From an uncultured Candidatus Rokubacteria bacterium (GTDB lineage: Bacteria > Methylomirabilota > Methylomirabilia > Rokubacteriales > CSP1-6): a stretch of DNA of 64,000 nt. This document shows, piece by piece, positions 47,486 through 53,024 of this stretch. Both the position numbers and the translations under genes were made by a program. Numbering within the stretch: position 1 is the stretch's first letter; every line of letters begins with the position of its first letter. The stretch spans positions 64,001-128,000 of the forward strand of contig CAVWWD010000005.1 of the NCBI GenBank assembly GCA_963758635.1. Reading direction: 5' to 3'. The notes beneath the pieces were generated by a model that worked only from the letters and a program-made list of their open reading frames with translations, was not told where the DNA came from and did not search any database.

Positions 47486-48043
47486 TCAGCGGCCGAGGAA
47501 CTTCCGCACACTCTCCGCGATGCCAGCGGCGTCGAGGCCGTGCTTCGCATAGAGGCCCTTCGCGTCCCCCGACTCGCCGAAGCTCTTCACGGCCACGCGC
47601 TTGAGGGGCGTCGGCATCTCCTCGCCGAGGAGCTCGGCCACCGCGCCGCCGAGCCCGCCCGCCGGCGCGTGATCCTCGACGGTGACGACGTGCCCGGTCT
47701 TGCCCGCGGAGCGGAGGATCGTCTCCTCGTCGAGCGGCTTGATCGTGGACACGTTGATCACGTCGGCGTGGATGCCCTCGGCGGCGAGCGTCCGCGCCGC
47801 CTCGAGCGAGTTCCAGAGCGGCCCCCCCGAGGCGAGGATGCTCACGTCGTTGCCCGACCGGAGCGGATGGGCCCGGCCGAACTGGAAGCGGTAGCCCTCG
47901 TCGTGCACGGGCTCGAGGTTCTGGCGGGTGAGGCGGAGGTAGATCGGGCCGGGATGACCGGAGCCGGCGTGGGTGATCATCCGGATGATCTGCACGCGGC
48001 ACTCGCGGGCGATCTCGTGGAGCTTCGGCAGGTCGGGCTTCAC
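47486..48043 (-). pseudogene. Internally deleted transketolase (N-terminal ~32 aa joined to the C-terminal domain)
   Basis: AGSGHPG joined directly to PIYLRL...TIKPLD...TVEDH..GGLG. Confidence 0.7.
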
Positions 48044-48094: not shown

Positions 48095-48180
48095 CTATCG
48101 AGCCCCGCGCATCAGACCAATGCCGAGCGGTGGGATTGTAGGGGCCCGTGGCGGTTACCGTATTCTGCGAGGGTCATTAG
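48095..48180 (-). repeat. Repeat family A, copy 3
   Basis: Starts on the TAA stop of the PmbA-like gene. Confidence 0.85.
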
Positions 48181-49731
48181 TCCTCCGTGGCGTGCGCGAT
48201 GGCGTCGACGTGGACACCGCGCACCGCGATCTCGGGCGCGTACACGACCTCGTCGGCGGCCCACACGAGCGTCCCCCGCGGGCGCTTGCCGACGCCCACG
48301 ATGTCGCGGAGCACCCGCGTCACGTCGTCGTTGATGCGGATCACGTTGGCGGCGAGCGGCTCGGCGAGGCGGCCGTCGCGGATGATAAAGGAGTCGCCCA
48401 CGACGGTGCAAGTGAACGCGCCCGCGCGGAGCCCGTTGATCGGGTACGTGTACCAGATGCGGCCCACGTAGAGCCCGTCCCGCACGCGCGCGAGGAGCTC
48501 GTCGCGCCCGAGGGGCGCCGCCGCCTCCACGAGCACGTTCGAGGCGGCCGCGCCGGGCTGGGTGTCGAAGGCGCGGCCCCCCATCCCGGTGTAGCGGAAA
48601 CCGTTCCGCGCGACCAGGGCGGACGCGGCGCCGGCAGGATCCACGCCCAGCTTCTCGCGCGCCGCGGGGTCGTGGAGCAGGCGCTGCGCGTCGTACCACG
48701 TGGTGAGGAGCCCCACGAGGCGGCCGTCGCGGATCAGCTCGGTCCGGCCCGTGGGCAGCCCCTCGCAGGTGATGCCCTTCGAGCCCATGAGGCCGGGCAG
48801 GGCCCCATGGTCGGTGAGCGAGAGCTCGCGCGCCGCGACGGACTGGCCGAGCCGGCCGGCGAACGGCGTGGCCGCGGCGTAGAACGAGCTCGCGTGACAC
48901 GCCGGCAAGACCAGGTTCGACAGGAGATCGGTCACGGGCTGCGGGCCGAAGACCACCGTGTAGTCGCCGGACGGCACGCGCGCGCCGCCGACGGCGGCCA
49001 CCGCGGCCTGCGCGGCGTCCACGCCCGCCTCGTCGGTGAACTCGTGCAGACGCGTCCCCGTGGACCAGCCCGAGCCCTTGGCATCGCGCGTCTCCACCAT
49101 GGCGGTGATGCCGCTCGTCATGAGCGTGGACTCGTCGGTCTGGACGCCGGGCAGGTGGGTCGAGGCGATCGCCATGCGCTCCTGCAGGATCGTCACGTCG
49201 CCGCCGCCGATGAGGCCGAGCCGCGCCAGGTCGGCCTCGGTGGGGACGAGCGCGGCCAGCTTGGACGACGCGAGGAAGGCGCCCAGCGCGCCGCGGAGCA
49301 CCTTCCAGCCCGCCTCCACGAGGTCCTCGTCGCCGACCGCCATCAGCGCGGGGGTCGTGGTAGTCGAAGAGCGCCCGCCGCTCGGCGCCGGGGCGGGGGA
49401 GCGACACGAACTCCGGGTCCCGCACGGCGGCGCGCCGCGCCTTGGCGAACGCCCGCTCCGCGCCGGCGCGCGAGAGGTCGCTCGGCTCGGCGCCGAAGCC
49501 CAGGAGCACGCCGTCAGGGGAGTCCAGCGCGACCTGGATGCCGAGCCCGAGCGTCTCGGTGGACTTCGGCTCCTCGACGCCGTTGCAGGGGATGTGCGAG
49601 CTGTAGTTGAGGCGGCTCAGGAGGACGCCGTTGGCGGAGGCGAACACCTCGGCCTCCCGCACGCCCGGCTGCGCGGAGACGAGCTCGTGCGCGGCGGCCA
49701 CCGCGCGCGCGAGGGTGGCGGCGTCGATCAC
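48177..49731 (-). CDS. Divergent TldE/PmbA-like protein (frameshift near 49345)
   Basis: EAEVF, PSGDYTVVFGP, TCEG, LIRDGRL, GLYVGRIWY; no HExxxH. Confidence 0.7.
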
Positions 49732-49780
49732 GCGCGCCCGCTCCGCGGCGCGCCGGCGGCGACGCCCCGCCGTGAGCGCA

Positions 49781-50194
49781 TCAGCCCTTCTTCCCGGGGG
49801 CGGACTCGGTGGGGTACTGCTTGGCGCGCCAGCCGGGGATGCCCTCGTCGAGGATCACCATGTTGCGGAAGCCCGCCTGGTACAGCACCTTGTTGGCCCC
49901 CCGGGCCAGCGTGTGCGGGCACGCTCAGTAGAGGGTCACCGTCTCCTGCCGGGGCACCTCGGCGAGACGGCGGGGCAATTCGCGGAGCGGGATGTTCCGG
50001 GCCCCGCGGATGTGGAGGTCGTCGAACTGCTCGCGCTCCCGCACGTCGATGAACACGACGCGCTTGCCCGCGTCGAGCATGGCCTTGGCCTCGTCGACCG
50101 AGACGTAGCGCTCCGGCACCTCGGGATCTCCCGCCGGCGCCACGGTGGCGGCCAGAAGCACGCCCACGAAGCAGAGCGCCGCCGGGATCTTCAT
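49781..50194 (-). CDS. Exported rhodanese-domain protein, putative selenoprotein (TGA at 49925-49927 read as Sec)
   Basis: Signal peptide, IDVR, HIRGA, VTLY-TGA-ACPH, then in frame LYQAGF...LDEGIPGW...YP to a stop at 49781. Confidence 0.8.
49885..49916 (-). promoter_or_regulatory. Candidate bacterial SECIS hairpin
   Basis: Upper stem TGGCCC/GGGCCA with a G loop starting 16 nt after the TGA; lower stem GCAC/GTGC. Confidence 0.55.
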
Positions 50195-51761
50195 CGGGCC
50201 CGCTCCCCGGTGAGCACGGCGCGCGTGCGCATCGTGGGACCGCCGTTGCCGAGCCGCCGCGTCTGCATGGGCTGGCCCTTTCCGCAGTTGGGGATCGGGT
50301 AGAGGCGGAAGTCACGGCCGACCGCGTCCACGTTCATCAGATAGGCGCGCGTGTCCGCCATGATGCCGCCGTCCCGGTACAGCCGCCCGAGCCGGCCGCG
50401 CTCGATCTCGTAGACGCGGCGCGCGGAGATCCGGAAGTTCTCGCGGCTCTCGGCGATCGACGGGATCTTGTGGCCCACGAGGTAGTAGCCGTGGTCCACG
50501 CCGGCGATGATGTCGGCGGGGTCGGCGTCTCCCGCCGCGAACACCGTGCTCGACATGCGCACGAGGGGGACGAGCCACGCCTCCGTGGCCTTCCAGTGCC
50601 CGTTCGGCGCGCCCCCGAAGACGGCCGCGGTCTGCCGGCTGTTCATGAAGCCGGTGAACACCCCGGCGTCGATGTGGACGACACGCGCGGCGGGGGTCCC
50701 CTCGTGGTCGTAGGCGTAGTGCCCGTAGCCGGGCAGCGACGGATCGGAGAACGCGCTGACGAGCGGCGAGGCGATGCGACGGCCGAGCTCGTGGCGCGTG
50801 AGGTCGCGGAGGAGCCACGACCGGCCCGCGTACGCCGTCTCCATCTTGAGCCCGCGGTCGAGCTCGACGGGATGCCCCACGATCTCGTGGGAGACGAGCG
50901 TGTTGTAGTGCGGGTCGGTGACGACCGTGACCTCGCCGGCGGCCGCGGGCAGCGCGGGCGCGCGCGCCAGCTCCGCGGCCTCCGCCCCCAGGGCCAGCGC
51001 GAACTCGGCGAAGGGCGGGGCGGGCATGAGGGGGTCGGCGATGCCCGCGGTCAGGATCTCCCAGCCGCGCTGGTGGCCGACGACGTCGTAGAGCTCCTGG
51101 CTGCCCTCGTCGCCGCCCGCCACCACGTAGCCGAAGCCCTGGGTCAGGGCGAAGGACTGGTCGATCAGGGCGCCCTCGGACGAGGCGAACAGCTCGCGCG
51201 CGAGCTGCGTCGTGGTGGAGATCGCGTTGTAGCGGACCCCGGGGTCGACGCCGGCGACGCGCCGAGAAACGTCGGTGGTGAAGCGGACCATCTCGTCGAG
51301 CGCCATGGCCCGGGGATCGACCTCGAACGTGGCCGCGACCACGTCGCGACAGACGCGGACGGGGGCCAGGCGCGTGTCGGCCAGGCACTCGCCGAGGCTC
51401 CCGAACTTGCCCCGGGCGTCGGCCTTGCCCTCCGCGTTGGCGAGCGCGCGACGATGCGCCGTCCGGAGGCCCTCGGCGAGGATCTCGCCGAGGCGGGGCA
51501 GGTCGGCCACGCCGAGCACGCGGCCGTAGTAGCCGGGCGCCACCGCGCGCGCGCCCGCGAGCACGCGGAGGCCCATGGCGAACGCGTAGTCGTCGCCCGC
51601 GCCCTTGGCCTCGCCGTTCTCGGCGGAGGCGTGCTTCGACTCCGCCACCTCGAGACGGAGGTCGGCGTAGGCCAGGTGGGGCAGGGCGCGCGCCCGCACG
51701 GTCACGGTCTCCTCGGCGAGGGCGGCGATGTCGCCGATCAGCTCGGTGCGGATGCGGTCGG

Positions 51762-51765
<4 letters not shown>
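50191..51765 (-). CDS. Divergent TldD-like metalloprotease
   Basis: YADLR, HEIVGHPVELDR, YDHEG, CGKGQP; overlaps both neighbours by 4 nt. Confidence 0.8.
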
Positions 51766-52967
<1,202 letters not shown>

Positions 52968-53024
52968 GGGCGTCATTATACCGGGCCGTCGAAGGCCGGA
53001 ACCCGCGTGCTACGATCGCGCGCG

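Follow-up and report, generated by a model that had tools for sequence, protein, structure and literature searches.

Selenocysteine-containing rhodaneses are already known. Table 1 of a 2026 review (PMC13188914) gives five forms of rhodanese selenoproteins, UxxS, UxxG, CxU, UxxG and UxxxxU, and the same earlier forms are found in an excerpt of PMC9312934. In addition, a U-x-U rhodanese of Olavius algarvensis symbionts is reported in a section of Zhang and Gladyshev (2007; PMC1976440). In the available portions of their main texts, BSepDB (PMC13326102) and deep-Sep (PMC12013277) leave rhodanese unmentioned. A form in which selenocysteine (Sec, U) and cysteine are arranged as U-x-C is not among the five entries of Table 1 in PMC13188914; Haft and Tolstoy (2025) or Deng et al. 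(2026) could list the subfamily. A gene of this form is located on the minus strand of a 64,000-nucleotide stretch, called the window in the following, from an uncultured Candidatus Rokubacteria bacterium (assembly GCA_963758635.1, here G000; contig CAVWWD010000005.1, positions 64,001 to 128,000). On comparative sequence evidence the residue at the catalytic site, specified by in-frame TGA codon 90, is almost certainly selenocysteine, and the predicted exported U-x-C rhodanese is a new motif variant beside the catalogued forms. The gene comprises the following elements:

49781..50194, minus strand: gene of a predicted exported single-domain rhodanese selenoprotein (U90) of 137 amino acids, ATG at 50194, terminal TGA at 49783-49781

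50132..50194, minus strand: predicted Sec-pathway (secretion) signal peptide, amino acids 1-21, ending in A-P-A (heuristic)

49823..50101, minus strand: segment of amino acids 32-124, the Pfam Rhodanese match

49925..49927, minus strand: in-frame TGA at codon 90 (putative Sec90), where the active-site loop begins; strand 85-89 ends directly ahead of it and helix 95-106 follows

49919..49921, minus strand: Cys92, second member of the U-x-C pair, in the motif Y-U-A-C-P-H

49894..49908, minus strand: predicted upper stem-loop of a bacterial selenocysteine insertion sequence (bSECIS), TGGCCC-GGG-GGGCCA, with a 6-bp stem, a GGG loop and a 16-nt spacer after the TGA

As the initial annotation had noticed, the standard open reading frame ends after 89 amino acids at TGA 49927-49925, and 47 further codons follow in the same frame. 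The read-through protein matches Pfam Rhodanese (PF00581) from amino acid 32 to 124, that is profile positions 1-101 of 102, with 65.5 bits, which bears out the claim that the rhodanese fold is completed beyond the TGA. U90 stands after the central strand and before a helix, like the catalytic Cys. In a product of 89 amino acids, one third of the rhodanese fold would be missing, and with it the catalytic loop.

The assembly contains many indels (tldD, tldE, selA and a selD-like gene are all frameshifted), so the TGA needed an independent check, which was made against four sequencing runs, all of them as assembled contigs (X1, X2, X7 and X9). Record 2 of X1, an Illumina contig, extends over 49772-50448; it differs at six places, and the TGA is not one of them. 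A contig from an RNA library (X7, record 18) covers 49856-50088 with one difference, at 49995, and an intact TGA. Neither X2 nor X9 has a piece reaching the TGA among the longest ones listed. The claim of an in-frame stop rather than an indel error therefore stands, and neither TGC nor TGT was seen at the site.

Furthermore, the codon is conserved. Among 60 related genomes, 37 have TGA at the same column and two (G056, G060) have TGC; for the remaining 21 no orthologue was present among the matches examined. Scanning GTDB with the pattern Y-TGA-x-C-P-H-x-L-[AS]-x-x-A yielded at least 116 stretches, of which 113 are rhodanese homologues (more than 50 bits against an alignment profile made for this analysis) and three were dropped as unrelated; all counts based on 113 refer to the matches listed. 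The Cys version of the pattern gave 29 stretches, 24 of them homologous, and the other five were discarded. The Cys/TGA pairs expected at the active-site column are thus found both in the relatives and in GTDB. Going by their titles, most records of the TGA set come from Rokubacteria/Methylomirabilota, from Binatia or 'Deltaproteobacteria', or from Entotheonella/Tectimicrobiota, and a few carry other labels; the closest relatives of the window gene belong to Methylomirabilota/Rokubacteria. Three genomes (G009, G023, G063) are unpublished, and no main conclusion rests on them. Two TGA carriers among the 37, one selB check out of five and the G009 machinery result given below come from these genomes, as do loci L060, L107, L250, L331, L336 and L341; the counts of 113 genes and of 82 loci (used below) may also include some of their rows.

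In a protein-database search 65 of 67 matches end at the TGA or reach no further. Most are 89-99 amino acids long, and nearly all cover the first 47-65% of the query. Public protein sets cut the subfamily at about 90 amino acids, gene callers stopping at the TGA, as had been predicted for automated annotation. One match is full-length, a Cys form of 137 amino acids with 62% identity, known from its protein record alone.

The TGA is followed by the hairpin that the initial annotation had called SECIS-like. Its arms occupy 49908-49903 and 49899-49894 and its loop 49902-49900, 22 nt after the UGA, with a loop G at +23; the folding energy is -10.5 kcal/mol. According to the legend of Fig. 2 in PMC13188914 a bSECIS has a loop of 3-9 nt with a G among its first two bases followed by G/U, a stem of 4-16 bp, a distance of 16-37 nt from the UGA and a minimum free energy of at most -7.5 kcal/mol. 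The window hairpin agrees with all four published bSECIS criteria. All 113 TGA genes combine a G at +23 with G/T at +24 and form four or more of the five core pairs, vs none of the 24 Cys homologues, and the region +13..+36 reaches -7.5 kcal/mol or less in 99/113 vs 1/24. The leucine at +6 is written CTG or TTG in every one of the 113 TGA genes vs nine of the 24 Cys genes, the scan pattern having accepted any YTN there. Codon +8 is AGT, CGG, CGT or GGT, never AGC or CGC, in a genome where AGT makes up 0.8% of Ser and CGC 57% of Arg codons (values for G000), and codon +9 is GGG, TTG, CTG or GCG, never the common GGC. Judged from these codons, synonymous choice follows the needs of the putative hairpin, and rare codons are kept. 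The best control for the hairpin comes from genus g42, where the syntenic Cys orthologues of G060 and G056 retain the protein motif but no longer have the hairpin codons. Across 99 distinct sequences 87.4% of the cells pair, compared with a mean of 79.6 after shuffling and 21-64% in slid controls, and of the 99 rows 50 have C-G as their closing pair and 44 have A-U.

A machinery for Sec insertion is encoded in G000. The tRNA-Sec (selC) scores 67.7 bits (cut-off 47), selB is intact (375.6 bits), selA is present and split by a frameshift, and all three are clustered on contig C10. In 53 of 61 genomes selB lies over its cut-off. Five TGA carriers are without selB at this threshold, three of which have a split or cut selB plus selA; all five carriers tested outside the Rokubacteria possess selB. 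TGA is the main stop codon of G000 (2462 of 3364 long open reading frames) and therefore a global recoding is excluded; both tRNA-Trp(CCA) and tRNA-Sec(UCA) are present.

About 15 more in-frame TGA codons were seen in redox motifs of G000 (UxxC, TxxU, CxxU, UGC and UGSC types), some of which are listed in the table of PMC13188914. Most have a similar short G-looped hairpin under a rule set made post hoc, and the families are assigned by motif alone. Examples are C3:265288-, C4:50618+, C5:669078+, C3:880064+, C5:707157- and C8:861314-, and further sites are C5:638764-, C8:466122+, C11:216084+, C3:512457- and C8:1171022-. The selenoproteome of G000 is probably large, and many of its members are probably exported.

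Several observations weigh against Sec decoding. Of the genes for which a search had been proposed, selA, selB and selC were found, and canonical selD was not found in the 87%-complete G000 assembly. The single selD match is a frameshifted SelD-like gene (212 bits; C3:49900-52010, L103) with the Cys motif C-G-G-C-A-A-K and a long N-terminal extension. A separate selD containing a TGA occurs in 17 of 20 relatives, so the canonical gene has probably been missed by this incomplete assembly. In G007 and G009 (98% and 95% complete) the TGA gene is present and no selA, selB or selC was found; both have a TGA-containing selD, and an assembly gap is the likely cause. In DNA of about 72% GC the hairpin is not unusually stable (z = -1.51; 16 of 200 shuffles are equally good), longer windows around it give z from -0.05 to +0.57, and its significance lies in its conservation, not in its stability. 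In 51 of the 99 rows the outer pair does not form, in 19 there is a U-C mismatch at an inner pair, and covariation is modest, consisting essentially of one inherited change at one pair, tied to an Arg-Gly/Ser-Leu swap. Finally, the RNA-library contigs support the letters of the TGA and have no bearing on transcription.

The indel errors nearby, the many database proteins ending at or before the TGA and the two carriers without detectable selABC could also be explained by a true stop (a pseudogene, an 89-amino-acid product or a sequencing error), or the TGA might be read as Trp or Cys. However, the codon recurs in independent Illumina contigs and in the 113 orthologues across phyla, with the downstream frame and the hairpin conserved, the shortened product lacks the catalytic loop, and G000 has TGA as its main stop together with the two tRNAs; this alternative as a whole is extremely improbable. 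By contrast, decoding of the UGA as Sec through a SelB-bound hairpin is, on the comparative evidence, close to certain: SelB carrying Sec-tRNA(Sec) would bind the G-looped hairpin 22 nt downstream, and selenocysteine would be inserted at codon 90.

The active-site loop of the window protein, U-A-C-P-H-T-L, is one residue longer than in canonical single-domain rhodaneses of the same genomes and has no G-x-R; Cys92 and Pro93 are nearly invariant in the alignment. Canonical loops of the GlpE/PspE type have the signature C-x-x-G-x-R, which also occurs in homologues compared here. The window protein has neither the G nor the R of such a six-residue loop and scores under the GlpE and PspE cut-offs. 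Rhodanese-fold enzymes of the Cdc25/Acr2 type have a C-x5-R loop. A phosphatase or arsenate reductase of this type was rejected, the Arg being missing and position +6 being Leu throughout the alignment of the Sec clade.

The best NCBIfam match is rhodanese_LYCAU (NF041203), the C-x-U form 3, with 56.1 bits (E 2.8e-15), not reaching the cut-off of 115; a Binatia orthologue scores 55.3 and a Cys orthologue 49.9. Both families share a two-thiol loop in the same register and a UGA plus bSECIS. However, NF041203 has its Sec at the third loop position, whereas the window family has it at the first, catalytic one, forms a separate branch in a quick tree and has a predicted signal peptide of the cleavable type. 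In this tree, from an unfinished search, all U-x-C genes stand together with His-less C-x-C paralogues nested among them, and the C-x-U genes stand apart (SH-aLRT 93). The same genomes also carry C-x-U rhodaneses whose loops are in the same register as U-x-C. G000 itself has a second Sec-rhodanese of this kind, a DedA/VTT-rhodanese fusion (C11 ~202285-203210, minus strand; L101:5285-6212) with Y-C-S-U-P-N-E, a G-looped hairpin in a similar register, 79 bits to NF041203 (under the cut-off) and 29% identity to the window protein. The U-x-U rhodanese is a precedent for Sec at the first C-x-C position; there, as described in the cited section of PMC1976440, a second Sec was added to the C-x-U family, whereas U-x-C occurs in a separate, widespread clade. 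Forms 1, 2 and 4 of PMC13188914 Table 1 (UxxS, UxxG) have Sec in place of the catalytic Cys as here, with different loop motifs. A separate rhodanese of the Entotheonella-labelled genome G064 (L343) has an in-frame TGA at the catalytic position and the loop U-G-G-E-N-R, and is probably a UxxG form. TsoB (form 5, NF045694, UxxxxU) is a rhodanese/DsbD fusion, to which the single-domain window protein scores 21.9 bits vs a cut-off of 805; its tie to a membrane thiol-disulfide protein is comparable to the VKOR adjacency of U-x-C genes described below.

An exported Cys paralogue of G000 (G000:C7:105744-106085, plus strand) has Y-C-A-C-P without the His and belongs to the clade nested in the Sec family; this clade often adjoins CopD/CusF, and some of its members have lost both Cys. 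In Desulfobacteraceae (L056, L333, L334) a signal-like N-terminus and a pair of CxxCH cytochrome c domains precede a Cys-form Y-C-A-C-P-H rhodanese in one fusion protein, a hint that loops of this type may accept or donate electrons.

The hydrophobic N-terminus (Kyte-Doolittle 11-mer peak 2.74) is followed by A-P-A. A hydrophobic stretch ahead of the domain is conserved in 109 of 110 scorable orthologues, with A-x-A-like sites next to it in the alignments. The protein is thus likely exported, as had been proposed; this part of the proposal gains support, and the periplasmic location stays a prediction. According to PMC2593051, with background in PMC9163753, E. coli PspE is likewise a small single-domain rhodanese that is exported and whose signal sequence is cleaved off. 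However, PspE has one Cys, no Sec, and neither a second Cys nor a His in its loop. PspE models match the window protein weakly (40 vs a cut-off of 102), as does structure 2jtq, and the window locus has no psp operon. The window protein would likely be a Sec-Cys version of a PspE-type periplasmic rhodanese.

The neighbouring genes in the window are:

51762..52976, minus strand: moeA (molybdopterin molybdotransferase), at the head of the conserved string moeA-tldD-rhodanese-tldE-transketolase

50191..51765, minus strand: tldD-like metalloprotease gene, upstream, a conserved neighbour, frameshifted in the assembly

48177..49731, minus strand: tldE/pmbA-like gene, downstream, a conserved neighbour, frameshifted in the assembly

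In family f1, to which the window belongs, 19 of 21 loci have tldD upstream and tldE downstream, and moeA and transketolase are usually present as well. The tldD stop and the ATG of the rhodanese gene overlap (ATGA), which suggests translational coupling. At 47486-48043 the N- and C-terminal transketolase genes, both intact in relatives, seem fused by a large deletion, which may be an assembly artefact or a real loss. The conserved string and the ATGA coupling, together with the presence of queC as the next gene downstream in 52 of the 82 loci of the H-H-L-A-S-L-A subgroup described below, fit a classical thiosulfate:acceptor sulfurtransferase serving its co-operonic pathway (moeA for the molybdenum cofactor, TldD/E for peptides, queC for queuosine), Cys92 being incidental; rhodaneses do serve in molybdenum cofactor biosynthesis and in tRNA thiolation. 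However, these pathways are cytoplasmic whereas nearly all orthologues have the signal-like N-terminus, the neighbours differ completely among lineages, the G-x-R signature is missing, and MoeA and QueC need no sulfur donor, so that this alternative is rather improbable.

Other lineages have other neighbours. In Rokubacteriales family f4, 11 of 14 loci have CopD-cytochrome c, CusF and bufferin-like genes at a distance of up to about 12 kb, among them the bufferin maturase BufB at 377 bits (cut-off 310); Fur lies directly downstream in 11 loci. These loci (L061, L064, L067-L071, L073-L076) contain DUF2282, MNIO BufB, DUF2063 and DoxX, and a CopD-cytochrome c-AhpC fusion, CusF, a Cys-less rhodanese and a cupin beside the Sec-rhodanese and Fur. 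In the subgroup with H-H-L-A-S-L-A (82 loci) a VKOR-thioredoxin fusion ends at most 500 nt upstream in 53 loci, and SCO is found in 51 and a CtaG/Cox11-like gene in 17. L268, L250, L314 and about 50 other Binatia-type loci show an operon of two CtaG/Cox11-like genes, SCO, DUF4382, SCO, VKOR-thioredoxin and the Sec-rhodanese, continuing with queC, DUF58 and BatA/vWA genes. Divergent DUF1775 and CopD-like genes occur in Tectimicrobiota-type loci (five of the 82).

The proximity of the gene to periplasmic copper genes in three lineages allows a reading with the same recoding and export and a fold repurposed for copper: Sec90, Cys92 and His94 would bind Cu(I), or the protein would reduce or protect the CxxxC of SCO, in either case while copper is detoxified or supplied to heme-copper oxidases. 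The Sec clade retains His94, and the His-less paralogues too adjoin CopD/CusF. However, family f1 has no adjacent copper genes (the tldD-gene-tldE loci including the window), the His was part of the GTDB pattern and thus conserved by construction, the three contexts are three events at most, related genomes being non-independent, and two Binatia SCO queries found no homologue in G000. A periplasmic Sec-Cys-His redox/copper site working with VKOR-thioredoxin and with SCO/Cox11 or CopD/CusF/bufferin systems is accordingly tentative, and we regard it as unlikely though not negligible.

The best explanation as a whole, held with moderate confidence on sequence evidence, combines Sec recoding with a periplasmic Sec-Cys persulfide/thiol-redox enzyme. 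After cleavage of the signal peptide a rhodanese domain of about 116 amino acids would very probably act in the periplasm. Sec90 would there serve, on balance, as a catalytic selenolate with Cys92 as its partner; in favour of this, both positions of the C-x-C loop became Sec in different families (U-x-C, C-x-U, U-x-U). The selenolate would attack the S-S bond of a persulfide, polysulfide, thiosulfate-type donor or protein disulfide to form an Se-S adduct, and Cys92 would take over the sulfur or resolve the adduct to an intramolecular selenenyl-sulfide. A periplasmic thiol-disulfide relay, for example VKOR-thioredoxin, would reset the pair, in line with the VKOR-thioredoxin gene directly upstream in 53 of the 82 H-H-L-A-S-L-A loci. 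VKOR proteins are normally oxidising, and thus electrons could flow in either direction. By taking sulfane sulfur away or passing it on, the enzyme would likely maintain the proper state of periplasmic thiols, above all of cysteines that bind copper.

Three points count against this function. The substrate is uncertain because the loop is without G-x-R and one residue longer. The window neighbours moeA, tldD, tldE and transketolase are cytoplasmic and uninformative on periplasmic sulfur. The VKOR-thioredoxin gene of G000 is unlinked to the rhodanese gene; it lies on another contig (C9:327600-328600; L359:5622-6600), is frameshifted and is 38% identical to the Binatia one.

The finding adds a selenoprotein subfamily that Table 1 of PMC13188914 does not contain, although it is widespread, with at least 113 genes in GTDB. 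It also provides a natural experiment on bSECIS design, with one register, the loop G at +23, rare codons kept and the hairpin lost where Sec reverts to Cys. Together with the C-x-U and U-x-U forms, it means that both positions of one rhodanese loop are convertible to Sec, which points to a redox chemistry of two residues for which enzymes of the PspE/GlpE type offer no described example. Should the copper link be true, selenium would be tied to periplasmic copper handling in aerobic soil bacteria, and, if there is a copper site, a selenium-dependent step in copper-site assembly or homeostasis would exist in three abundant uncultured soil lineages.
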